A stretch of DNA of 64,000 nt from Candidatus Parcubacteria bacterium (GTDB lineage Bacteria; Patescibacteriota; Minisyncoccia; UBA6257; 2-01-FULL-56-20): the NCBI GenBank assembly GCA_027450205.1, contig DAIDJL010000004.1:11932-75931 (forward strand), given 5' to 3'. Below, one piece after another: positions 4,871-49,784 of this stretch. Under the pieces are notes generated by a model. That model was not told the DNA's origin and made no database searches. It worked only from the letters and a program-made list of their open reading frames with translations. Position 1 is the stretch's first letter, and each line of letters opens with the position of its first letter. The translations under genes were made by a program, and so were the position numbers.

Positions 4871-5014
4871 AAAAGGATTATATCAGAAATCAAAAAGACC
4901 GTTCTTTCGAACGATCTTTTTGAAAATGGTGCTTGCGGCACCACGCTAGGCTGCCACCTTGATATCCATAGTACTCGGATCTCTATGGACGTCAAGTTTA
5001 AGTTCGTGCCAACG

Positions 5015-5086
5015 TTGACCGGTGGGGAGTCGAACCCCAAACTGCCAGGTGGCAGCCTAGCCGTGATACCGTTTCACCACCGGCCC
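5015..5086 (-). tRNA. tRNA-Gly(GCC)-like gene with aberrant anticodon arm (possible pseudo-tRNA) and structured 3' trailer
   Basis: Minus-strand read GGGCCGG-TG-GTGA-AACGGTA-TCAC ... TGGGG-TTCGACT-CCCCA-CCGGTCA-A gives canonical acceptor, D and T arms. The anticodon stem CTAGG/CCTGG encloses a 6-nt loop CTGCCA containing GCC, one nucleotide short of canonical. No CCA is encoded. Confidence 0.4.
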
Positions 5087-5159: not shown

Positions 5160-5996
5160 CTATTTCCCTAATGTGTCGCCGTGTCGCACGCTCCACTGAT
5201 ACAAAACGACCGCGGCGGACACCGACGCGTTCAGCGATTCGGTGCGCGCATGCATCGGGATCCGCAAAGAAATATCGCAACGTTCCATGGTTTTCTGGCG
5301 GATACCTTCGCCTTCGTTGCCCACGATGAAAAGCGCGGGCGCGGCAAATTGTTCGTCCATAATATTCTGTGCGCCGTTCATCACGAGTCCGTAAGTGACG
5401 AAGCCGATCTTTTTAAGCGCGTCCACGGCCTGGTTGACGTTGCCGATCGAGATGAGGGGAATGCGGAATGCCATGCCGGCGGAGGTCTTTACGACCGTGC
5501 CGGTGATCGGCGCCTGGTTATGGACGGGGATCAGCACGCCCGCCGCGCCGAACGCCGCCGCGGAGCGGATGATCGCGCCCACGTTGTGCGGATCGGTAAG
5601 CTCGTCGAGCAGGACGAGCATCGTCTTCTCGGTGGGGCGGAGACTTGCGATGAACTGCTTAAGATCAAGAAGCAGCGATCCTGGGTCGGTGACGGCGATC
5701 ACTCCCTGATGCGCGGTCTCACGGCCGACGACACGGTCTATTTCGCTGGATTTCAACACGCCGGGCGTGAGGCTGGCGTTGCGAAGCAGTGTCCGCAGTT
5801 CGGGATCATTCACTTCTGGCGACAAGAAAACCTTCCGCACTGCGTGCGGCGCATGCGCGAGCGCTTCCATCAGCGCATGTTTGCCGTAGATGTATATCTT
5901 CTCGCGCGAGCCATGCGCGGAATAGTGCGCGCGCGCAGGGTGTTCGCGGCGTGGTGCGCGGCCGGAGTGCGCGCGCGATGGGCGGTGCCTTTTCAT
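5160..5996 (-). CDS. rlmB: TrmH/SpoU-family 23S rRNA 2'-O-methyltransferase (RlmB-like)
   Basis: SpoU motifs LVLLDELTDPHNVGAIIRSAAAFG, FIVGNEGEGI, ESLNASVSAAVVLY. The ATG at 5996 (MKRHRP...) is preferred over the track start at 6071, whose extra N-terminus is Arg-rich junk. Confidence 0.8.
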   Translation of the reverse strand: MKRHRPSRAHSGRAPRREHPARAHYSAHGSREKIYIYGKHALMEALAHAPHAVRKVFLSPEVNDPELRTLLRNASLTPGVLKSSEIDRVVGRETAHQGVIAVTDPGSLLLDLKQFIASLRPTEKTMLVLLDELTDPHNVGAIIRSAAAFGAAGVLIPVHNQAPITGTVVKTSAGMAFRIPLISIGNVNQAVDALKKIGFVTYGLVMNGAQNIMDEQFAAPALFIVGNEGEGIRQKTMERCDISLRIPMHARTESLNASVSAAVVLYQWSVRHGDTLGK

Positions 5997-6776: not shown

Positions 6777-6950
6777 ATGTGGAAACAATGGACAAACGTG
6801 GTGCTCGGACTCCTGGTTCTTATTGGTACATACGCGGGAGTGACCATGGGATGGATTATGACCGGCGTGGCATTGATGACCATTCTGGCTTGCTGGGCTG
6901 GAATAGAAGGCCTCGGAGCGGAAAGCAGATCGGCAGCACATGCGCATTAG
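6777..6950 (+). CDS. Unannotated small hydrophobic protein (57 aa, two predicted TM helices)
   Basis: ATG..TAG frame encodes MWKQWTNVVLGLLVLIGTYAGVTMGWIMTGVALMTILACWAGIEGLGAESRSAAHAH. It is absent from the ORF track only because it is under 60 aa. It lies directly upstream of hsp20. Confidence 0.3.
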   Translation: MWKQWTNVVLGLLVLIGTYAGVTMGWIMTGVALMTILACWAGIEGLGAESRSAAHAH

Positions 6951-7978: not shown

Positions 7979-8492
7979 GGGAGAGTGGTACGGTAAAAGG
8001 AGCTGCTTTCGGTGTCCAACCAGGGATCGGAAGTACATCTTTAAATACCGAGGGTAAAATGGCAACAGTCGTAGTTGCGCTTAGCGGTACCCGGGAGACC
8101 CATATCCCGGGAAATGGCGTTCCTCGCTTATCCCAACCCCAGTTTGTTTGCACGGATCCCCACCTTTCCGGCAGGCTTCTCTCCGATTTCCTGCAGGGCG
8201 TCAATTGCACCCTTTCCGGTCCGCAGAAGATGCGGATGCTGGATCACGCCAAAGTCTGTCCGTCTTGCAATGGCGTGCTGACAAGGAAGTTTGGAAAGAG
8301 GTTTTCCTGGGACAATTAAGGTCGAGTTTTCGGATTTTTTACCCCACCCCCACACCATGGCGTCGTTTTCATTTTTAGGATCCGGCGCCATCACTCTGTT
8401 CGGACCCTTGAAAAGGGTCCGCATTTCTGTAACTATAGAGCGGGGAGGGTTTTTGATTGGCAGGGGTCCAAGGCGCCGCACGCATGCAAAGC

Positions 8493-8579
8493 GGTGAGGT
8501 GGCTGAGTGGTCGAAGGCGCCGCACTCGAAATGCGGTGTACCTGAAAGGGTACCGTGGGTTCGAATCCCACCCTCACCG
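8493..8579 (+). tRNA. tRNA-Ser(CGA)
   Basis: Acceptor stem GGTGAGG/CCTCACC. Anticodon stem CCGCA/TGCGG with loop CTCGAAA. Long variable arm. T-arm GTGGG-TTCGAAT-CCCAC. The acceptor stem is extended by a flanking inverted repeat GCATGCAAAGC / GCTTTGCATGC. Confidence 0.85.
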
Positions 8580-8634
8580 CTTTGCATGTGCAGCCTTCTT
8601 TCTTGGTCCACGGCCGCAGGCGCGGTACAAGATC

Positions 8635-10011: not shown

Positions 10012-10206
10012 CCATATTATGGCATATAATATATTCGAAGATTAGAGCCCTTTTACAGTCATAAAATCAATTGAATTAATGGTTTGGTTGCGGCCCTTGG
10101 CGCGTAGAAGCGTATGCGTCGCGGGTCGCAACCAACCCCGGAGGAACATCATCCGAAGCAGCGCGATGTTCAGGGACTTGGACGGCAGAAAAAGGAGGAC
10201 TTGCGC

Positions 10207-10884
10207 ATGAAAAACGCAACCCTTGAACAAGGAATGAAAGTGCAGAAAATGATCGTGGATAAAGGAACGCCGGACGAGCAGCTCCAGTGGACGCTGGAAT
10301 CGGGGGCGTTGTCCGACCTCTTCGATGCGAACCCCATAGAGTTCAACCGCGATGCTTTCCGGGCGTTTCTCGGCCTCAAACCGTTGAACCCACCGGCTCC
10401 GCCACTCCTCATTCCTGTCGGCACAACGACCGTGGCCGCAACGACGAATCCGTTCGTCGTCCGCGACCGCATCGTCGTGAATACCCCGAAGAACGCGCCC
10501 GTGAAGATTTACTTCGTGAGCGACTACTTCAAGCAGTGCTTCTACGGAAAGACGGAAGAGGCATTCGGGGGATCGACGCTTAACTATGGCAAGCTCTCGC
10601 GCTCGTCCGTGGATGGCCCGATCATCGCTGAACTCGGCGGCAAAGCCAAGGCAGAGACCACCCTCACCGAGGTCTATGCGCTCATGGAAGTGCAGAAGAA
10701 CGGCGAGAAAGATCCTCTGCTCACCAATGGTTACGCGAACATTTTCTATGTCCGTGACATCAATGGCGTGCTCCGCGCGGTCGTCGTGTACTGGAACGGC
10801 GTCGGCTGGCGCGTGGACGCGGACGGCGTCACGCACCCGGGCGCGTGGGACGTTGGCGACCAGGTGTTTTCCCGCAATTCTTGA
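10207..10884 (+). CDS. Hypothetical protein (no recognisable family)
   Basis: Strong RBS AAAGGAGGA 8 nt before the ATG at 10207, preferred over the track start at 10114. The C-terminus is ...VVVYWNGVGWRVDADGV. The gene ends at tandem hairpin terminators. Confidence 0.6.
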   Translation: MKNATLEQGMKVQKMIVDKGTPDEQLQWTLESGALSDLFDANPIEFNRDAFRAFLGLKPLNPPAPPLLIPVGTTTVAATTNPFVVRDRIVVNTPKNAPVKIYFVSDYFKQCFYGKTEEAFGGSTLNYGKLSRSSVDGPIIAELGGKAKAETTLTEVYALMEVQKNGEKDPLLTNGYANIFYVRDINGVLRAVVVYWNGVGWRVDADGVTHPGAWDVGDQVFSRNS

Positions 10885-10945
10885 AATCTTGAGTACCTTG
10901 GGTTCTACGATTTTTTTAGAACCCTTGGACTCTTCAACCCTTTGA

Positions 10946-10986
10946 CCCTCGCATCTTTTTCGGAAGGAGCGAGGGTTATTTTTTTT
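10946..10986 (+). terminator. Intrinsic terminator
   Basis: Hairpin CCCTCGC ... GCGAGGG followed by a T8 run. A second hairpin GGGTTCTA ... TAGAACCC sits just upstream, followed by a TATACT -10-like box. Confidence 0.6.
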
Positions 10987-10998
10987 GCTATACTATGC

Positions 10999-11328
10999 AA
11001 TGAAAGCTCGCATACGGAACGGTCATGGCTTTTCCGTCGCGCTTTTAGAAAACTATTCTGCCGGAATCGCGCCGGGTACGCCTTGCGCGAGTGCGTGAAT
11101 CGGTTTCTTTCAAAAATTCAAGAAATGGATAATATTCTAGCGCTTCGCGATGATTTGCGAAATGGCACATATCGGCATGGCGGCTATCAGGCATTCAACA
11201 TTTCCGACCCCAAGCCGCGGAATATCCACAAGGCATCGGTGCGTGACCGCCTATTACCCCCCCGCGACCAGTCATTAATTCTTATAAGGGAATGCTTAGC
11301 CACGGCAATGCCTATAAACAAACATTAA
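10999..11328 (+). pseudogene. N-terminal fragment of a retroelement reverse transcriptase, DGR-type RT-like, truncated
   Basis: The translation ...ILALRDDLRNGTYRHGGYQAFNISDPKPRNIHKASVRDRL matches the N-terminal/motif-1 region of retroelement RTs (consensus G.Y..G.Y..F.I.(D/E)PKPR.I....(F/V)RDR(L/V)). This is closest to diversity-generating-retroelement RTs as recalled. The frame stops 10 codons after RDRL. No RT motifs 2-7 (YxDD etc.) exist downstream, and there is no usable ATG. Confidence 0.5.
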
Positions 11329-11380: not shown

Positions 11381-11749
11381 ATGAAAAAAACAAAACTAAC
11401 AAAGAAGAAAATGACGATCGAGGATCTGGCAGTAAAAATGGATGGATTAGCGACCAAAACCGATCTAAAAATAGACGAGTCTGTAGGCAGTCTGGCCATT
11501 ATGGTTCAGAACGGCTTTATGGAAACCGCAAAACAAGAAGATCTACTTGCACTTACCGAGCGTGTCAAAAAAATAGAAGAACGTCTTGATGGGCATGATA
11601 AGGAATTTAAGGGCATGCATCAAAATTTTGACGATTTATTTCAAAAGATCAAAGAAATAAGAGAGGATATGAAGGAAGCCGACAGTCGCGCCGACGTGGT
11701 AGACCTGCAGATCCGCGTAAGCAAACTCGAAAAGAAAATTCGTTCATAA
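11381..11749 (+). CDS. Hypothetical coiled-coil protein (K/E-rich, 122 aa) in an AT-rich insert
   Basis: Strongly helical heptad-like sequence. GC is markedly lower than the surroundings. The TTGACT -35-like box lies upstream. Confidence 0.55.
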   Translation: MKKTKLTKKKMTIEDLAVKMDGLATKTDLKIDESVGSLAIMVQNGFMETAKQEDLLALTERVKKIEERLDGHDKEFKGMHQNFDDLFQKIKEIREDMKEADSRADVVDLQIRVSKLEKKIRS

Positions 11750-11773: not shown

Positions 11774-11888
11774 GGGCTCATCCCTTTATCTTTTAAAAGG
11801 CGTCTCGGAGCCGCGAGGGCGGCGAGAGCCGAGGCGCGCACTCAGCAGAGGGTGATGACGTACTTTTAAAAGATAAGAGGATGAGCCC
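11774..11888. repeat. Hairpin-flanked structured repeat, copy 1 (26-bp imperfect inverted repeat arms around a ~55-nt conserved GC-rich core)
   Basis: Arms GGGCTCATCCCTTTATCTTTTAAAAG / CTTTTAAAAGATAAGAGGATGAGCCC. The core CGGAGCCGCGAGGGCGGCGAGAGCCGAGGCGCGCACTCAGCAGAGGGTGATGACG recurs at 49.7 kb with compensatory changes. Confidence 0.6.
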
Positions 11889-11927: not shown

Positions 11928-12611
11928 GTGATCGTTTTCCAGGGAGTTTCCAAGCATTATACGGGCCACGGGGTCGCACTTGAGGATGTTGATTTCCAGA
12001 TCGACCCCGGAGAATTTGTTTCTCTCGCCGGCCGCTCGGGCGCCGGAAAGTCCACTATTATAAAGTTATTGATTGGAGAGGAAAAACCGTCAAAAGGACG
12101 CGTTTTTTTCGGGCAATATGAGGTGAACAAGCTGCAGGACAACGAACTACCGGCATTCCGGCGCCACATCGGGGTCGTGTTCCAGGATTTTCGCCTGCTT
12201 CCCACCAAGACCGCGTATGAAAACGTTGCGTTTGCGCTTGAAGTTGCCGGCCGGCCCCAGCGGGAGATCGCCGAGCTTGTGCCGCAGGTATTGGATATGG
12301 TGGGCCTGGGAGACAAGACGAAGAATTTCCCCAACGAACTTTCCGGCGGAGAGCGCCAGCGCGTCGCGATCGCACGTGCGATGATCCATCGCCCGGAGGT
12401 CGTTATCGCCGACGAGCCCACGGGCAATCTCGACCCATTCCACACGTTCGAGATCATTAAGCTGTTGGAAAAGATCAACCAGCTTGGCACCACGGTGGTG
12501 CTTGCCACCCACGACAAGGAGATCATCAATACCCTTGAGCGACGGGTATTGACGCTGGACAAGGGCCGCCTCATTCGCGACGAGAAAAAAGGAAAATATA
12601 TCCTGGTCTGA
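11928..12611 (+). CDS. ftsE: Cell division ATP-binding protein FtsE
   Basis: Walker A GRSGAGKST, ABC signature LSGGERQR, Walker B VVIADEPTGNLD. High similarity to E. coli FtsE. GTG start. Confidence 0.9.
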   Translation: MIVFQGVSKHYTGHGVALEDVDFQIDPGEFVSLAGRSGAGKSTIIKLLIGEEKPSKGRVFFGQYEVNKLQDNELPAFRRHIGVVFQDFRLLPTKTAYENVAFALEVAGRPQREIAELVPQVLDMVGLGDKTKNFPNELSGGERQRVAIARAMIHRPEVVIADEPTGNLDPFHTFEIIKLLEKINQLGTTVVLATHDKEIINTLERRVLTLDKGRLIRDEKKGKYILV

Positions 12612-39078: not shown

Positions 39079-42000
39079 ATGAGGCAACGATTTCTATCCA
39101 GTCGCATAGCCCATTTTGTTCTGTCTGGAGCCGCCACTTTGCTTGGCGGTTTTCTTTTTCTTCTTCCATCAGCGCAGGCAAGCACCATAAACGTTATAAG
39201 TAATATTACGACGAGTACAACATGGGTTGCGAGTAATGTGTACGTTTTTAATAACAACCTGATCGCAATTCAGTCCGGGGTTACCCTTACCATCGCAAGC
39301 GGTACTGTTGTGAAATTTAACGGCACATCTTCAGGATTGACGGTTGACGGTACATTGCAAGCTAATGGCGCAGCCGGAAATCAAATTTATTTTACTTCCG
39401 TTAATGACAATTCAGTGGGTGGGACTATTAGTGGATCGACAGGGAGTCCGGCCGCTGGTAATTGGGCCGATATCGGGATTGCTTCAGGGGGTATCGCAAA
39501 TATAACCGACGCAGTGGTTCGCTATGGGGGATCTTCAAGCGGGGGGTCTGCGGATATCAATCAGTCCGGCGGGGTGCTTACTGTTTCAAGCACGCAAATA
39601 GCGACAAGTACGTTATATGGTTTGTATATATCTGCCGGAACCAGTACGGTTGAAACGAGCACGTTTACCACAAATGGTTTTTATGGATTCTATGAGACCG
39701 GCTCTGCCTCGCTCACTCTCACGAGCAGCACGTTTTCTCAAAACGACTTCACGGGTTATGTTAATTTTGGAAGCGGCGCTACGTTTATCCCTTCTGGAAA
39801 TTCCGCTTCTGAAAATATTACCGAAAACGGTTATGACATTTTAGGAACCCTTACCAAAAACGAGACATTATATGATGACGGTGTTCCTTATGTCATTGGC
39901 TATAACAATGGCGTTGGGGTCACTATTGCACCAGGGACGTCTCTGACTATCAATCCCGGTACGATTATAAAATTTCTTAAAGTCAGCTCCGCTGCTTATA
40001 TTGATGTAAAAGGCATCCTCAATGTTCAAGGAACATTAACCAACCCAGTATATTTTACCTCGATCAAAGACAACTCTGTTGATTCTGGGACGGGGGGGAG
40101 CACTACATCCACCCCGGGCTTGGGCGATTGGGGAAGTATTGAAATTGATCCCGGGGCAAGTACAACGATTATGAATGCTATCATTCGTTATGGTGGTGCT
40201 ACAGGGTCTGCATATTACAATTCTGCCGATATCGACATAGCGGGAGGCGTTTCATCACTCTCTTCTGTAACGGTGGCATCGAGTAGTAATTATGGTATTC
40301 AATCCACCGCTGGAACGATAACTATTTCAAGTAGCACCATCAGTAGTAATGGGGCATCGGGAATCTACGCATATAGCTCATCCGGCACTATTAATATTTC
40401 GAGTAGCACTTTCGCTAATAACGGTGTTGATGCGGCATTGATTAATTTTACGAGCGCCGTTACCTTTGTTCCTTTAGGGAATACTGCGTCAGGTAATGGC
40501 GAGAATGGGTATGATATCCGCGGGACGTTAAGCACGAACGAGACTTTATACAATGACGGCATTCCTTACGTTATTGGCTATAACAATAATGATGGTGTCA
40601 CTGTTGCCTCAGGGACCACACTTACCATCAGTAGTGGAACGGTCATAAAGTTCTTGCATCAGACTACGGCGTCGTTTCTGGATATAAAGGGACGCTTAAA
40701 TGTTCAGGGAACACCAACCAACAAAGTTTATTTTACCTCAATTAAGGACAACTCAATCGATCCCGGTACTGGCGGGAGCACTACGTCTACTCCAGGTCCT
40801 GGCGATTGGGGACGTATTGAAATTGATTCTGGTGCAAGCACAACAATCAACAATGCTTTCATTGGGTACGGCGGCTATTCCTTGACTCCCGCGACCGATA
40901 TTTACCAAGCGGGAGGTGTTTCAACTATCATTAATTCGCAGATCGCTGATAGTTTAGATGATGGCATCAATATAAACGGAGGAACATCGACTATTACACT
41001 CTCCGAATTTAATGGCAATGGGCATGGTGGAATTTATATGAATGGCGGGATGATCACGATTTCAACAAGCAGCATCCAGGGAAACGTCACTTACGGAATG
41101 TACAACGGTGATAATGTTACTTCCACCGCCATTGCCGAAAATAATTGGTGGGGATCAACAACTGGCCCGACGAATGCCGCGAATCCTGGAGGCACAGGCG
41201 ATGTGGCGTCATCATATGTTGATTTTAATAACTGGCTCAATTATTCTCCGGTAAACGGAACTACAACTTTAAGTAATCTTATGCAGTATAAATCGGATGC
41301 GACAACAACGCTTAGCGAGGGGAGCTCTACCACCGAATCAATTATAGTGTTCGGTGCAAAACTGCAATCATTAGCTACAAGTACAGAAAGCCTTCAAGTG
41401 GAAGTTGAACCAGTGGGTACTATGTTTACCAATACCGTTACCGTATCCAGCACTTATGTGGTTCCCGGAAGCAATGCGACGGCAACATTCCCACTTGTGG
41501 ATACTCGCGAGATCAGCGGAAATGGAAGCTATCATTGGCAGGCGAGGGTAACTGATCAATTGGGAGATACTTCCGGATGGCAATTGTTTGGGCCGAACTC
41601 AAGCTCTACTGATTTCAAAATTAGTGCGGTGCCACTTTATACACAGGTCACGTCGACCTACCCTTCGCCTTCTGCAACTACGGGGACTGTCTGGTGGGCA
41701 CCTCAATTATTAGATGGTATCGCCACAAATACTATCGCCGGCTTCGGCTGCTTAATTACATCTGTGACGATGGACCTTCGATCGTATGGGATAACAACCA
41801 CTACAATGCAAAGTTATATGAGTAGTACCGATGTTAATCCTGCGAACTTAAATGATTGGCTTGAGATGGCAAATAGTTCTGGTACGGGTTATTTCCCGGC
41901 GGGAAGTGGTCTTATGAATTGGCAGGACATCCCTTACTATTCCGAAACTCCATCAGGCACGTTTAGAGTTTGGTATAACGTTACTACCGATCATATATCT

Positions 42001-42633
42001 TCACCTTCAAGCACATGGGTTAATAAATGGCTTGATTATACTTCAACGGGAACGGTGCCAGTAATTTTAACCGAAGGAAATATTTCCGGTGTGACTCATT
42101 TTGTAGTGGCAACGGGATTCGCTAATAACAATAATACTTCGACCTATACCTTACGCGATCCATTCTTTTATAACACTCAATATTTGAATCAAGCATCATC
42201 AACAGCAAATCATATTTATGGATATGCCAATACCTATGCGAGTGCAAATATTCTCGAGCCGACTTCTACCGCTGTTTTGCCTCTTTACCTCGAATATACT
42301 ATTGATAGCATGCACACACTTTTGATCACTGATCCGAATGGAAATAAACTTGGCATAAATTTAGGCACCGGCGTTGAATATAATCAGATACCAGATGCAG
42401 CAGAGGACGATAGTCAGCCGGGCGTTCGTTTTCTTACTATTTACCATCCAATAGATGGAAATTATACGTTAAGTATTGGAGGGTCTGGGAAATATGAGTT
42501 ATCAAGTTTCGTAGCTGATGGGAAGCATATGCCTATTCCGCAGATAATTTCATCAACTACACCATCTTCGGCCGCTGCGATATATCATCAAGATTATAAT
42601 TCTTTGAATCTTTCAGCTAGCACAGTCCAGTAA
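39079..42633 (+). CDS. Giant secreted beta-helix repeat protein (1184 aa) with three tandem ~200-aa modules and a C-terminal Cys/His/Asp-containing domain
   Basis: Signal peptide ...FLFLLPSAQAS. Three near-identical modules each contain GT(V/I)IKFL, YFTSIKDNS, GDWG.IEI, IRYGG and ENGYDI.GTL..NETLY.DG.PYVIGYNN. A Thr/Ser-rich tail carries GFGCLIT ... GVTHFVVATGF ... TLRDP, suggesting a papain-like triad. The GC content is markedly low for this window. Confidence 0.7.
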   Translation: MRQRFLSSRIAHFVLSGAATLLGGFLFLLPSAQASTINVISNITTSTTWVASNVYVFNNNLIAIQSGVTLTIASGTVVKFNGTSSGLTVDGTLQANGAAGNQIYFTSVNDNSVGGTISGSTGSPAAGNWADIGIASGGIANITDAVVRYGGSSSGGSADINQSGGVLTVSSTQIATSTLYGLYISAGTSTVETSTFTTNGFYGFYETGSASLTLTSSTFSQNDFTGYVNFGSGATFIPSGNSASENITENGYDILGTLTKNETLYDDGVPYVIGYNNGVGVTIAPGTSLTINPGTIIKFLKVSSAAYIDVKGILNVQGTLTNPVYFTSIKDNSVDSGTGGSTTSTPGLGDWGSIEIDPGASTTIMNAIIRYGGATGSAYYNSADIDIAGGVSSLSSVTVASSSNYGIQSTAGTITISSSTISSNGASGIYAYSSSGTINISSSTFANNGVDAALINFTSAVTFVPLGNTASGNGENGYDIRGTLSTNETLYNDGIPYVIGYNNNDGVTVASGTTLTISSGTVIKFLHQTTASFLDIKGRLNVQGTPTNKVYFTSIKDNSIDPGTGGSTTSTPGPGDWGRIEIDSGASTTINNAFIGYGGYSLTPATDIYQAGGVSTIINSQIADSLDDGININGGTSTITLSEFNGNGHGGIYMNGGMITISTSSIQGNVTYGMYNGDNVTSTAIAENNWWGSTTGPTNAANPGGTGDVASSYVDFNNWLNYSPVNGTTTLSNLMQYKSDATTTLSEGSSTTESIIVFGAKLQSLATSTESLQVEVEPVGTMFTNTVTVSSTYVVPGSNATATFPLVDTREISGNGSYHWQARVTDQLGDTSGWQLFGPNSSSTDFKISAVPLYTQVTSTYPSPSATTGTVWWAPQLLDGIATNTIAGFGCLITSVTMDLRSYGITTTTMQSYMSSTDVNPANLNDWLEMANSSGTGYFPAGSGLMNWQDIPYYSETPSGTFRVWYNVTTDHISSPSSTWVNKWLDYTSTGTVPVILTEGNISGVTHFVVATGFANNNNTSTYTLRDPFFYNTQYLNQASSTANHIYGYANTYASANILEPTSTAVLPLYLEYTIDSMHTLLITDPNGNKLGINLGTGVEYNQIPDAAEDDSQPGVRFLTIYHPIDGNYTLSIGGSGKYELSSFVADGKHMPIPQIISSTTPSSAAAIYHQDYNSLNLSASTVQ

Positions 42634-42637
42634 TAAT

Positions 42638-43330
42638 ATGAATAAAAAAGGTTCAATAAATATCGCACTTATTATTCTCGTCGTTTTGCTAATAGTTGGC
42701 GCTATTTGGTATTATGAAGCAAATAAGGAGAGTGCATTTCAAATGTCACTTTCTCACGATACTATTACGACAACCTCGATTCAAACAACTGCGGCAAGTT
42801 CAACCGTACCCCCGAGTACTTCATGGTTAGCATCCATAAAGCGGACAAGTCCGGAGGTGGTGCCCGTGCCCAGTTCAGTTTTAATTTCTGAAAAAATTCG
42901 AGGTAAGTTTGCTTTCATCCAAGGAGGAGATGTTTGGGTTGCTGACCAAGATGGAAACAGTCAATTACAACTAACTCATGCGGGTAGTGAGGGGGAGGTG
43001 AGAGATTTCACTTTTTCTCCTAATTTTCAATATCTTGAATATCACATCCCGTGGTTTGGAGCTTACGCTCGTGGAACAATTAATATTCTTGATTTGAATA
43101 CTAATAAAGTAGTTTTTCAAGTCAATGGATTGACTCTTTATCAGTTCGGTACATTTAAATCAATGTTAGGATCTCAAACGCCATACGTAGCTTTCGATAG
43201 TTGGATTAATAATAACCAATTCATTTATGACGCTTGGGGGCTGGATGGTCCCGGTGGCGGAGCAAATGAATATGGAAAGTTACTCGTTGATTTACAAAAC
43301 GGAACGACTACGGTGATACAACCTCAATAG
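42638..43330 (+). CDS. Membrane-anchored hypothetical protein (230 aa), beta-rich
   Basis: N-terminal TM IALIILVVLLIVGAIWYY. Same low GC as the upstream giant gene, and probably co-transcribed with it. Confidence 0.5.
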   Translation: MNKKGSINIALIILVVLLIVGAIWYYEANKESAFQMSLSHDTITTTSIQTTAASSTVPPSTSWLASIKRTSPEVVPVPSSVLISEKIRGKFAFIQGGDVWVADQDGNSQLQLTHAGSEGEVRDFTFSPNFQYLEYHIPWFGAYARGTINILDLNTNKVVFQVNGLTLYQFGTFKSMLGSQTPYVAFDSWINNNQFIYDAWGLDGPGGGANEYGKLLVDLQNGTTTVIQPQ

Positions 43331-43395
43331 GATCTAATGAAACATTTTCGACTTAGGAAATTTTCCTTTGTCGATTTTTCTGCTATAATCTCCCT

Positions 43396-44172
43396 ATGGT
43401 GGATTTCTCGCATTTAACGAAGGCCTATAAAAAGAAGGTGGTCGTGGACGATTTTACGCTTTCCGTGGATGTGCCGATCTTCGGTTTTTTGGGACAGAAC
43501 GGGGCGGGGAAGACGACGATCATGAAGATGATCGTAGGATTGCTCCAGCCCACAAGCGGCACGATAACGATCGACGGGGCGCTCTCGTCGCATCCTATTT
43601 TTAAAAAGAAGCTGGGGTACATGCCGGAGACGCCGTACTTTTACGAGCGCATGACCGGCATGGAATTTTTGCGTTTCTGCGACGAACTTTTTGATAACAC
43701 GAACAGCGGCGCCGATCCGGCGGCACGAACATCGCACTACGAGGAAATTTTAAAGAAGGTGGGTATCTTTGCCGCGCGCAACGCGGAGATCCGCACGTAT
43801 TCCAAGGGTATGCGCCAGCGCCTCGGCTTCGCGCAGTCGCTCGTGAACGATCCGGAATATTTATTTTTAGATGAGCCGCTTGACGGCCTTGATCCGATCG
43901 GCCGGCGGGAAATGAAAGAGGTGATGCTCGCGCTCAAGCACGAGGGCCGGAAGATATTTTTGAATACGCATATCCTCGCCGACGTGGAGGAGATCTGCGA
44001 TGAGGTGGGGATCGTGCACAAAGGAAGATTATTGTACGCCGGCAGCGTGAAGGCGTTCTGCGCGGGCAAGCCGCTCGAAGAGCGGTTCATGGAAGCGGTT
44101 GCGGAACACGAATCGATCGCGCTCAATGCCGTGCCGGCGCACGAGATACCTGCGGGCCATCATCAAAAATAG
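43396..44172 (+). CDS. ABC transporter ATP-binding protein
   Basis: Walker A GQNGAGKTT, Q-loop, signature-like YSKGMRQRL and Walker B LFLDEPLDGLD. Confidence 0.85.
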   Translation: MVDFSHLTKAYKKKVVVDDFTLSVDVPIFGFLGQNGAGKTTIMKMIVGLLQPTSGTITIDGALSSHPIFKKKLGYMPETPYFYERMTGMEFLRFCDELFDNTNSGADPAARTSHYEEILKKVGIFAARNAEIRTYSKGMRQRLGFAQSLVNDPEYLFLDEPLDGLDPIGRREMKEVMLALKHEGRKIFLNTHILADVEEICDEVGIVHKGRLLYAGSVKAFCAGKPLEERFMEAVAEHESIALNAVPAHEIPAGHHQK

Positions 44173-46904: not shown

Positions 46905-46950
46905 GAATGCCGCCCTTTTAAGAAAGATTTAATGCGGCAGCTGGTATAAT

Positions 46951-47706: not shown

Positions 47707-48312
47707 TTAATTCCTTCTATCAAGCGCCGAGCCAAGCGTCTCGTCGTCCGCGAATTCGATCTCGCCGCCGGTAGGAAGGCCGCGCCCAAGCCGGCTGATC
47801 TTTTTGCCGAGCGGCGCGAGCTCTTTCAGCAGGAGCGACGCTTGGAAGTCCCCGAGCGTCGTCGGGTTGAAGCCGAGGATGATCTCGTCGGCCGCGCCAC
47901 CCAGCTCATCCGCGATATATTTCTTTAAGCTAAGAAGCCGCGTTTTTTGCCATGCCTCCAAGAATCCCGTCTTCGGCACGGGGCCGACGATGAAGTAGCG
48001 CCCGGTGAACTTTTTTGTGTTCTCAAGTGAAAGATAATCCGTCTCTTTTTCCACCACCATGATGACGCGCTGATTCCGTGCCGGGTTCATGCAGACGTCG
48101 CACAGTGCGCCCGCGTTCTGATGGATGAAAAAACATCGCTCGCAGATCTTGATCGCGCGCAGGGCGTCGATGCTCTGCGCAAGCACGCGCAGATCTTCTT
48201 TTGGCCGTCCGATCAGGTAGAACGCAAGCCGCACCGCCTGCCGCGGCCCGATGGATGGCAGCTCCGCGAGCGCATCCACCACCTTTTGCACCGGCTCGGG
48301 GAGTTTCATCAT
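47707..48312 (-). CDS. recR: Recombination protein RecR
   Basis: HhH motif LPSIGPRQAVRLAFYL, C4 zinc finger CERCFF...C..C, Toprim domain and Walker-B-like tail. Confidence 0.9.
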   Translation of the reverse strand: MMKLPEPVQKVVDALAELPSIGPRQAVRLAFYLIGRPKEDLRVLAQSIDALRAIKICERCFFIHQNAGALCDVCMNPARNQRVIMVVEKETDYLSLENTKKFTGRYFIVGPVPKTGFLEAWQKTRLLSLKKYIADELGGAADEIILGFNPTTLGDFQASLLLKELAPLGKKISRLGRGLPTGGEIEFADDETLGSALDRRN

Positions 48313-48929
48313 GAGTTTTTTTGAGCTTCCTGTTTAATCATTGCAATAATCTCGGGAAATTTCGATATATTGAAATGTCCATTCTTACTCTTATAAATTG
48401 TGATACGGGCATTATTTAATTTCTTTCGATACTTCTCAGCATGAATAACAGGCACGACATTATCATCTTTTGAAAAAAGAAGATGAAGATATTTACAGTT
48501 TTTTTCCATAAGCGAGAGGTTAGCTTTCAATTTAAACCCGCCAACGAGGTCTTCGGTCGGGGTCGTATCATCGTAAGGCGGTGCGATTAAATACACGGAT
48601 ATTGCTTTCTTGGGCAGTTTATTTTCGGAGAGATATTTTGCAAGAAAAATACCACCCAGAGATGAGCCAATTAAGATATAGCGACTTTTTAGAAGAGGTA
48701 TATATTTTTTAAAAACAATCTTCCAATCTCTATATTTTGCATTATCTTGAAGTGGCATGCGCGGCCCGATGACTTCAAATTTCTTACCCAACTTTTTTTC
48801 TAAATAATCACCTGTCCAATACCTTTTTTTCTTAGTTGACACTTTCTTTGTGCGAAGGTAATGCAAATAATCCTTGTCATTTTTAAAAGTCATCCCGCCA
48901 TGTATCGTTAGCACCTGAATCTGTTTCAT
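48309..48929 (-). CDS. Alpha/beta-fold serine hydrolase (RBBP9/YdeN-like), low-GC gene
   Basis: Nucleophile elbow GSSLGG, with downstream Asp and His (NGHFNI). AT-rich codon usage, unlike the flanks. Confidence 0.55.
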   Translation of the reverse strand: MKQIQVLTIHGGMTFKNDKDYLHYLRTKKVSTKKKRYWTGDYLEKKLGKKFEVIGPRMPLQDNAKYRDWKIVFKKYIPLLKSRYILIGSSLGGIFLAKYLSENKLPKKAISVYLIAPPYDDTTPTEDLVGGFKLKANLSLMEKNCKYLHLLFSKDDNVVPVIHAEKYRKKLNNARITIYKSKNGHFNISKFPEIIAMIKQEAQKNS

Positions 48930-48987
48930 TACGTGCTTTTATTATCACTCTATTTTTCGCCTTAAGCAATTTTTACCCGGCGGCCGA

Positions 48988-49629
48988 TTAATTCTGACTT
49001 AAGGGGATTGCGACCTCCTCGAGTAATGACGCCTTCTTCATGCCGTCTTCTTTTCCATACCAAAAGACGGTCACGCTTGAAACGGTTATATCCTTACTTT
49101 CGATCGCTTTGAGATTTCTTTGAGACTCCGCGATATCGGCCTGTGGCTTATCAAAATCAATTTCGCCGAGCGTGATATGCGGATCGAACACTTCTTCTGG
49201 AACATGATATGCCTGCAAACTTTGGCGGCTACCGTCAGTGTGAATTCCTTGGCTTTCCAATCTCTTTTGGATTTTTTCAGATATGAATGGGCTGCGATAA
49301 GGAATGGCCAGCGCTGATACTATATCGTGCAGTTTCTGCAACTGTTGCTTATTGGAGACATCCATAATGTAAAGATTCCGATGTCGATCATTCTCGACTC
49401 TTATTTTCGGCGCAAGAAGTGAAACGGTAAATGGTTTTATAGAAAGTCCGCGAAGTTTTTCTAATAGCTTTGGATATCCATCAGATGTATAGCTATCGAG
49501 ATAGAGCGTAATATGCGGCTCCGACTTATAACTACTTCCATACTCGGAAATAAAACGCTGCTTCTCCTGCCAAAGCACATTTGTAATGTTATCCGGGAAA
49601 GTTATACGAATGCTGATATCGTATCTCAT
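48988..49629 (-). CDS. 2H-phosphoesterase superfamily protein (LigT/2'-5' RNA ligase-like)
   Basis: Two H-x-T-x motifs (EPHITLYL and DPHITLGE) at the expected spacing. Confidence 0.6.
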   Translation of the reverse strand: MRYDISIRITFPDNITNVLWQEKQRFISEYGSSYKSEPHITLYLDSYTSDGYPKLLEKLRGLSIKPFTVSLLAPKIRVENDRHRNLYIMDVSNKQQLQKLHDIVSALAIPYRSPFISEKIQKRLESQGIHTDGSRQSLQAYHVPEEVFDPHITLGEIDFDKPQADIAESQRNLKAIESKDITVSSVTVFWYGKEDGMKKASLLEEVAIPLSQN

Positions 49630-49658: not shown

Positions 49659-49784
49659 GGCATTATGAGGCATACAAATTTGTCCCGAGGGGAATCGCGG
49701 AGCCGCGTAGGCGGCGAGCGTTAGGGCGCATTCAGCAGAATGCGACCCGTCCCCGAAGGACATGTTTGTATGCCTCATAATGCC
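49659..49784. repeat. Hairpin-flanked structured repeat, copy 2 (perfect 20-bp inverted arms around the conserved core; distal arm overlaps dnaB stop codon)
   Basis: Arms GGCATTATGAGGCATACAAA / TTTGTATGCCTCATAATGCC. The core CGGAGCCGCGTAGGCGGCGAGCGTTAGGGCGCATTCAGCAGAATGCGACCCG aligns with copy 1. Confidence 0.6.

Follow-up and report, generated by a model that had tools for sequence, protein, structure and literature searches.

A family of three-way-junction hairpins with locus-specific stems at gene 3′ ends in CPR bacteria

Genes and hairpin elements in the window

The DNA analyzed here, referred to below as the window, is a stretch of 64,000 nucleotides from a Candidatus Parcubacteria bacterium (contig DAIDJL010000004.1), and lies within one replichore, because its GC skew is positive throughout. 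It carries two copies of a structured element, at 11774-11888 and 49659-49784, both with the core on the + strand, exactly where an earlier reading made from the sequence alone had placed them. Copy 1 is located between a 122-aa ORF (stop at 11749) and an ftsE-like ABC ATPase gene (start at 11928), with all three on the + strand. Rather than abutting ftsE, as had been described, it leaves a gap of 25 nt after the stop of the 122-aa ORF and one of 40 nt ahead of the ftsE-like start. Copy 2 is flanked by two minus-strand genes, dnaB and a LigT-like gene, such that its core is antisense to both, and its overlap with the stop codon of dnaB (49775-49777, TCA on the + strand) is as had been proposed. 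The two copies and their parts are as follows.

11774-11888, + strand: copy 1, whole element, long-stem form; covariance model 76 bits, E=1.7e-25
11774-11799, + strand: copy 1, 5′ arm of the outer stem; partner 11863-11888, 26 nt, 92% complementary (repeat I3)
11804-11828, + strand: copy 1, P2 hairpin, CUC / GGA / GCCGC-GAGG-GCGGC / GA / GAG
11833-11860, + strand: copy 1, P3 region, with the UCAGCAGA loop at 11842-11849; lower P3 helix degenerate here
11863-11888, + strand: copy 1, 3′ arm of the outer stem (repeat I3)
49659-49784, + strand: copy 2, whole element, long-stem form; covariance model 75 bits
49659-49685, + strand: copy 2, outer 5′ arm; its sequence is that of the minus-strand dnaB 3′ end, i.e. 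an inverted duplicate of the gene end
49689-49693, + strand: copy 2, 5′ strand of the inner P1 (GGGGA); partner 49750-49754
49696-49720, + strand: copy 2, P2 hairpin, CGC / GGA / GCCGC-GUAG-GCGGC / GA / GCG
49724-49748, + strand: copy 2, P3 hairpin, GGG-CGCAUUC-AGCA-GAAUGCG-(A)-CCC; the bulged A is 49745
49758-49784, + strand: copy 2, outer 3′ arm; covers the last two sense codons of dnaB and its stop (49775-49777)

The 26-nt arms of copy 1 (11774-11799 and 11863-11888) contain a single C.A mismatch and a single U.G pair (92% complementary), and those of copy 2 (49659-49693 and 49750-49784) are perfectly paired over the first 20 bp and 86% complementary across 35 nt. Relative to dinucleotide shuffles, the folds had z-scores of -9.2 (copy 1) and -12.6 (copy 2). 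Both copies share the 20-mer GGAGCCGCGNRGGCGGCGAG, which is present exactly twice in the window against 0.18 expected occurrences, and the covariance model found no third window copy, even with its filters off; two of the approximately 60 gene ends in the window carry the element.

The core motif put forward in the sequence-only reading is indeed shared, with two corrections to its spacing: CGGAGCCGCG and GGCGGCGAG are separated by 2 nt and not 1, and the gap from GGCGC to CAGCAGA, given as 3 nt, has that length in copy 2 and is 5 nt in copy 1. The P3 helix is partly degenerate in copy 1 (alignment row window:11789-11875). The GAGG versus GTAG difference, which had been taken for a compensatory change, falls at a loop position and is therefore a mere loop difference; the same is true of most of what had been called compensatory between the two copies, and two copies alone are insufficient for covariation. 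Neither window copy has a consensus promoter or a terminator-like site. Specifically, the GC-rich hairpin followed by a U-tract that defines an intrinsic terminator is absent at both, and the terminator suggested earlier is thus not found there.

Several other features were noted in the window. A 17-bp perfect inverted repeat (I8, 8483-8588) encloses tRNA-Ser(cga) at 8493-8580, such that the acceptor stem continues for 10 bp beyond both ends. At 4945-5086 is a conserved tRNA-like gene (Rfam tRNA 35.8 bits), for which ARAGORN gives a 2-nt anticodon (gc) and which is overlapped by a 15-bp perfect inverted repeat (4945-4959 and 5047-5061); this gene is also present in two of the related loci, L010 (6345-6417) and L026 (5520-5592). 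The GC content is 0.44 at 40001-44000, versus 0.51-0.58 elsewhere in the window. Upstream of copy 1, the ORF at 10942-11328 is a reverse transcriptase remnant, with 85% identity over 48 aa to an intact RVT_1 gene that is located beside a bAvd gene in L040 (8612-9958), and the 256-aa ORF at 10114-10884 had no Pfam match; judging from the sequence, the region 10114-11328 looks like a decayed diversity-generating retroelement. A tie between this remnant and copy 1 was considered and rejected, because L040 carries the reverse transcriptase and bAvd without having the element.

Fold, covariation and extent of the family

Both window copies fold as a three-way junction composed of P2, P3 and a long, locus-specific closing stem. 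In P2, a variable helix of 3 bp is followed by the GGA/GA internal loop, which is invariant, and then by a GCCGC/GCGGC helix that a G-N-R-G tetraloop caps; P3 contains a bulged A and ends in the loop UCAGCAGA (AGCA loop). Scanning one genome per species with the exact pattern returned 39 loci, of which approximately 30 were true copies, and the covariance model, R1, recognized 41 confident copies in these loci and the window. Among the metagenome matches listed, 80 were searched with the same model and gave 80 further copies. The pattern scan and the model together recovered at least 121 copies (41 in genome loci and the window, and 80 among the metagenome loci listed), so that the wider search with the core motif proposed along with the original reading gave at least 119 copies beyond the two in the window.

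Standard pairs occupied 91% of cells in the first set, versus 34-47% when partners were slid, and 93% versus 32-60% in the metagenome set; changes on both sides were present at 20 of the 23 pairs in each set, and the observed values were reached by none of 500 shuffles in the first set and at most one of 500 in the metagenome set, with the caveat that both alignments were fitted to the model. Copies that the exact pattern had missed carried compensated changes in P2b (GGCGC/GCGCC, GGCAC/GUGCC and AGCGC/GCGCU), and also had the closing pair on the AGCA loop flipped. Covariation of the three-way-junction core is strong, and is established because of the 119 further homologues rather than through the two window copies.

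Little or no variation was seen at the unpaired purines, which comprise those of the GGA/GA loop and G-N-R-G, the AG that precedes P3, the bulged A and AGCA, and the invariant ones are all on one strand. Moreover, the core helices of all copies contain 22 G.U versus 8 A.C pairs (p=0.016), with the same trend in the arms, and the G.U pairs come mostly from the short-stem form described below. Because G.U exceeds A.C and the invariant unpaired purines are located on it, we take the core-sense strand to be the one that folds.

The true copies in the genome scan were in MAGs assigned to Paceibacterota, Parcubacteria, Minisyncoccia, Kaiserbacteria and Woesebacteria, or in MAGs with no reliable taxon name; two MAGs with true copies are labeled Pseudomonadales, a name that is unreliable here. 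Otherwise, all credible copies were from Paceibacteria, Parcubacteria, Woesebacteria or unnamed metagenome contigs. GC-rich pattern matches outside of the candidate phyla radiation (CPR) were chance matches and were discarded, and no viral contig matched the exact pattern. The three-way-junction hairpin family is restricted to CPR bacteria. Within these, single MAGs had six to eight copies in the few loci sampled (CAWDZM01, OY970354 and CAVOJZ01), and at least seven of the metagenome copies were located at contig termini.

The Rfam 15 scan that had also been suggested returned no family at the gathering score for the window, for both copies or for 38 related loci, and, apart from chance matches to snoR28 and isrD, nothing that overlapped any copy at E<=10. 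The tRNA, rRNA, LOOT and group I intron matches in the scanned loci were all elsewhere than the copies. We also considered SRP RNA, 5S-like RNA, tRNA-like RNA, the hammerhead and other ribozymes, and the k-turn, whose motifs misfit on inspection and had no Rfam support. The publications found in our literature search do not describe the family. The two window copies are confirmed as true members of a large hairpin family that is uncatalogued in Rfam 15.

Short-stem and long-stem forms and their turnover between relatives

The short-stem copies (35-56 bits) have a P1 of 7-8 bp. They occur either within tRNA gene arrays, in which they are spaced like a tRNA, or immediately behind the stop codon of rplL, in every case in the same orientation as these genes. 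Their layout is A-A′-core-A, where A is a direct repeat of the 3′ end of the upstream gene and A′ is an inverted copy of it that forms the 5′ strand of P1. Nine of the 13 short-stem copies with an upstream tRNA have the repeat of the tRNA 3′ end right after P3; the repeats start in the T-loop, and eight are 19-24 nt long with at most one mismatch, the ninth being 15 nt. The same layout was built from the rplL 3′ end in four loci (L015, L047, L105 and L120). The fixed junction with an exact tRNA-end repeat makes the co-orientation with tRNAs explicable without co-transcription. Direct repeats of a tRNA end, as seen for tRNA-targeting integrative elements, were present at short-stem copies and not at the window copies, and the short-stem insert, at only about 100-130 nt, has no tyrosine or serine integrase of its own.

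Some additional features were observed near tRNA genes and in other short-stem loci. L094 has an unrelated 119-nt insert after tRNA-Lys (2828-2970), flanked by a 17-nt direct repeat of the tRNA-Lys 3′ end, which is missing from the otherwise identical contigs L065 and L116 and is therefore polymorphic within one population. A group I intron is located 9 nt after the short-stem copy in L085 (432-721), and a LOOT RNA is present in L115 (1494-1615).

The long-stem copies, which include both window copies, scored 60-98 bits and have arms of 17-60 bp that are almost purely Watson-Crick, a duplex length sufficient for an RNase III processing stem (approximately 20 bp at minimum). Their outer end overlaps or abuts the 3′ end of a neighboring gene (overlap +8 to -17 nt), and the opposite arm is an inverted copy of that end; the inverted ends of dnaB, ychF, tRNA-Glu, tRNA-Arg and tmRNA were all found in arms, which in L012 take in approximately 33 nt of the 3′ part of tRNA-Glu. 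Over the whole family, the elements are found at the 3′ ends of tRNA and tmRNA genes, on either side of 23S rRNA, and at protein-gene stop codons. A long-stem copy abuts the 3′ end of the tmRNA gene in L049 (1145-1466). On a single contig (L072), the 23S rRNA has a sense copy 4 nt upstream of its 5′ processing strand and an antisense copy 6 nt downstream of its 3′ processing strand, and antisense long-stem copies were also located inside the 23S-5S spacer and between tandem genes.

The orientation of the long-stem form was strongly skewed, with about 38 copies at the 3′ end of an opposite-strand gene versus about eight in sense (approximately 46 copies). The convergent long-stem cores contained 706 Watson-Crick pairs, three G.U and one A.C. 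Orientation relative to local GC skew gave no signal (16 against 25), and only about half of the loci with multiple copies were strand-concordant. The -10-like hexamers in front of 71 long-stem copies had no sharp positional peak, the region being only AT-richer, and the listed 3′ flanks of copies contained no T-runs. Arms were alike only between orthologous loci. In this small sample, no two paralogous copies shared arms and no arm had a match outside of orthologous loci, which bears out the initial description of the outer stems as specific to each locus.

Comparison of orthologous loci exposed both gain or loss and long retention. The site of copy 1 is empty in the orthologous loci L040, L041 and L042, the spacers at this site being 57 nt and 49 nt in the two closest relatives compared. 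Copy 2 has orthologues in L013 and L036, and L027 has a copy at the same position downstream of dnaB; a copy is present there in at least four genomes, with arms that are fully diverged yet still paired and loops that have been kept. The 23S flanks carry a copy in at least three genomes. These old, stable sites resemble what would be seen under selection for a host function. At the orthologous site in L014 and L016-2, the core differs by many compensated pairs, which fits long-term structural selection as well as replacement.

The second copy in L013 is located after ychF, a site at which L036 retains no more than the outermost 10-bp palindrome, the window sequence there being unrelated. In the spacer between ychF and the next gene of the window (46905-46950), we noted a GCCGC...GCGGC hairpin and TGGTATAAT, an extended -10 motif, at the place of the full element in L013. 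The 23S-5S spacers of L009 and L022 contain unrelated long hairpins between flanks that are 92-94% identical, one with a truncated core and the other with none. In orthologous pairs, the flank with the overlapped gene was conserved, while the opposite flank often was not. Gene content on the 5′ side of copy 2 is variable, because the LigT-like and serine-hydrolase genes beside it (48309-49629) are absent in L036 and partly replaced in L013.

Finally, we observed other hairpin families of the same design, in which locus-specific perfect stems of 24-37 bp surround a conserved apical module, either GATAAGAATCAAC or GAAC-AAUCCCGAAGGGUGAGCCC-GUUC. Hairpins with such other modules are at L022 1858-1921, L035 6354-6436, L007 3199-3291 and 3887-3983, and L041 1559-1642. 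In L035, the first base of the hairpin directly follows tRNA-Pro. The one in L041 is located between ftsE and ftsX, overlaps the ftsE stop and has an arm that is the inverted ftsE end, with a different apex and without the three-way-junction core. On the minus strand of L030, a GC-rich sequence of approximately 130 nt is present twice (5470-5600 and 6780-6913), each immediately followed by a three-way-junction element and then GTTGCCGCACTCGGTCTKGGAC; this could represent a structured RNA of larger size, or else a composite repeat with the element nested in it.

Possible nature of the element and comparison with known systems

Our preferred reading, held tentatively and falling somewhat short of probable, is that of a non-autonomous insertion element with gene 3′ ends as its targets and a core folded in single-stranded form. 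The three-way-junction core of approximately 60 nt would be the part under sequence-specific selection, and its purine-bearing strand would fold single-stranded for recognition by a putative factor. The element would then insert at gene 3′ ends. In the short-stem form, the last 15-24 nt of the target would become directly repeated on both sides, with an inverted copy closing the stem; in the long-stem form, a closing stem of 17-60 bp would have as its outer end an inverted copy of the neighboring gene's 3′ end. Templated repair or template switching between the arms may extend the palindrome and keep it perfect, and the hairpin, once inserted, would be inherited with the gene whose end it overlaps. 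We infer mobility as the cause, and favor an insertion element, because target ends are repeated, orthologous sites are empty, copies are numerous, each form has a fixed orientation, and wobble pairs are nearly absent. Against this, no transposase, integrase or partner protein was identified, nor was there a transposase-like neighbor in the loci inspected, and transposition of a unit together with its arms was not seen, paralogous copies sharing none. The direct repeats could also be functional rather than insertion scars, since they form P1, and alternative pairing with the tRNA end is possible. The long-retained sites, together with an orientation that follows neither local GC skew nor, in about half of the multi-copy loci, a common strand, likewise count against insertion.

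Alternatively, the copies could be the multiple genes of a family encoding a stable small RNA of approximately 70-90 nt, with the sense strand as product and a core that binds a putative protein; those in tRNA arrays would be released with the tRNAs, and the long stems of Paceibacteria would be RNase III-type processing stems that free the core, as for 23S rRNA. We view this as conceivable, albeit on the unlikely side. Short-stem copies are co-stranded in tRNA arrays or after rplL with tRNA-like spacing, as such genes would be, although the exact tRNA-end repeat at a fixed junction accounts for the co-orientation. Likewise, the excess of G.U over A.C points to folded RNA, yet it is concentrated in the short-stem form, and G.U pairs are nearly absent from long-stem cores. 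Consistent with an RNA product are features typical of folded RNA (unpaired purines that are invariant, and possibly a tandem G.A motif), the conservation of loops at long-retained sites, the window tRNA-Ser that likewise sits within a 17-bp perfect stem, and the copies that abut the 23S processing stem. However, a sense RNA would need its own promoter, because the long-stem copies mostly run antisense to the overlapped gene, and there was neither a consensus promoter nor a consistently placed -10 box. The sequence-only reading had argued from covariation to a functional RNA. Its premise holds by virtue of the 119 further homologues. Functional RNA is just one of two live options; pairs in the long-stem copies are almost all Watson-Crick, and most of these copies are antisense to the gene they adjoin.

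It is more doubtful, and in our estimation rather unlikely, that the element is a cis-acting 3′-end hairpin of the neighboring transcript, whether a stabilizer, a processing or punctuation site, or an atypical terminator, in which the long stem would function in either orientation and the GC-rich junction would be a very stable cap. This would suit the approximately 46 copies whose hairpin begins within or at the final codons, or the 3′ end, of the gene next to it, and the fact that in orthologues the hairpin stays linked to this gene, the other flank being variable. It would also suit hairpins of like build, with the apical module different or absent, at equivalent positions (L022 5930, L035 6354, two in L007, and L041 1559), and the 23S-5S spacer, which always has a long hairpin of unconserved sequence. 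A passive cap, however, leaves the invariant loop nucleotides and the 38:8 orientation bias unexplained. No U-tract follows the stems, only the two gene ends of the window mentioned above have such a hairpin, and the arms over tRNA-Glu in L012 would compete with folding of the tRNA.

Improbable in our judgment, as a more particular proposal, is an element that builds a long perfect hairpin from its target's 3′ end, either by a transposition or recombination mechanism with inverted plus direct target duplication around a folded ssDNA core, or as a host three-way-junction scaffold that would present an shRNA-like stem against the neighboring transcript. Chance resemblance or the decaying duplication of an ordinary intergenic segment, to which the degenerate P3 helix of copy 1 might be credited, has a negligible probability given at least 121 copies from numerous genomes, whose helices all show compensatory changes and whose loops are invariant, and given two window occurrences of a motif expected 0.18 times, and the original description as a structured repeated element and not a decaying duplication is upheld. 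A non-autonomous insertion element need not be wholly separate from its rivals: the readings may overlap, with a mobile element having been domesticated at dnaB and the 23S flanks.

CPR bacteria comprise a large, mostly uncultured share of bacterial diversity and have tiny genomes, and no survey of their non-coding elements surfaced in our literature search. The architecture is unusual in that a conserved apical junction is joined to locus-specific, perfectly paired arms made from the ends of neighboring genes. The elements mark the ends of tRNA, tmRNA, rRNA and protein genes, as well as boundaries of variable gene content. If mobile, they would represent an unusual insertion mechanism that targets and duplicates gene 3′ ends; if RNA, a new and widespread small RNA of CPR bacteria. 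In practical terms, they break metagenome assemblies and can confuse the annotation of gene ends.

Among known systems, REP sequences and REPINs (cf. PMC3733652) are imperfect palindromes of 20-40 nt that are conserved and bear a GTAG or CGTC tag; they are mobilized by RAYT transposases, and are thought to act on mRNA 3′ ends. To our knowledge, no RAYT gene is linked to the CPR family. Like REP/REPIN, the CPR hairpins are short, multi-copy, extragenic palindromes at gene ends that fold as hairpins and are non-autonomous. The difference is that REP conserves the arms, while the CPR family conserves the apical three-way junction and has locus-specific arms, in which we found no shared palindrome and no tag. 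Correia/NEMIS of Neisseria, ERIC, RPE, BOX and RUP are similarly dispersed, intergenic, hairpin-forming repeats. The long inverted-repeat stems of Correia elements are RNase III substrates in mRNA. In contrast to the CPR paralogues, which share nothing in their arms, these repeats have shared terminal inverted repeats and fixed direct target duplications. The MITE-like assignment made initially is likewise not supported, since the conserved part is the center and the arms are not terminal inverted repeats common to all copies; target duplication takes the form of direct repeats of 15-24 nt at short-stem copies and of inverted repeats, with overlaps of +8 to -17 nt, at long-stem copies.

Integron attC and the CTX-phage attP used by XerCD resemble the family in conserving structure over sequence and in having unpaired bases that mark the active strand, in sites at or overlapping the 3′ end of an ORF with the folded strand antisense to it, and in adjacent gene content that varies. 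Unlike attC, which conserves the base of the hairpin (R and L boxes) and has a variable apex, the CPR hairpins have a variable base and a conserved apex. Apart from one gene-plus-element pair in tandem in L001, nothing resembling a cassette array is evident, and we know of no integron integrase for the family. Some genetic elements reportedly use tRNA and tmRNA genes as integration sites, entering at the T-loop or the 3′ end (Williams 2002, NAR). The short-stem form is similar to these in that a direct repeat from T-loop to 3′ end flanks the insert and leaves the tRNA intact, and a tmRNA neighbor was found too; it differs in its insert of approximately 100-130 nt, lack of an integrase, use of many tRNAs and rplL as targets, and additional inverted copy of the target.

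The mitochondrial double-hairpin and other repetitive hairpin-forming elements (cf. PMC2800124) also place two adjacent GC-rich hairpins across intergenic regions, gene ends and rRNA spacers of compact genomes, and differ in belonging to another domain of life without detectable homology, and in having neither a long locus-specific stem nor invariant loops. The RNase III processing stems of rRNA and tRNA share with the family a long, near-perfect duplex around a structured RNA, and copies are located 4-6 nt from the 23S stem; those stems flank their product on the transcribed strand, whereas most CPR copies are antisense to the local unit. In how they would operate, the CPR hairpins come closest to REP/REPIN and Correia-type repeats and to folded single-strand sites such as attC, yet they depart from what defines these, with conserved and variable parts exchanged and with neither common terminal repeats nor tags. 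The family is best classed with interspersed palindromic, structured elements, of which it is a variant form.
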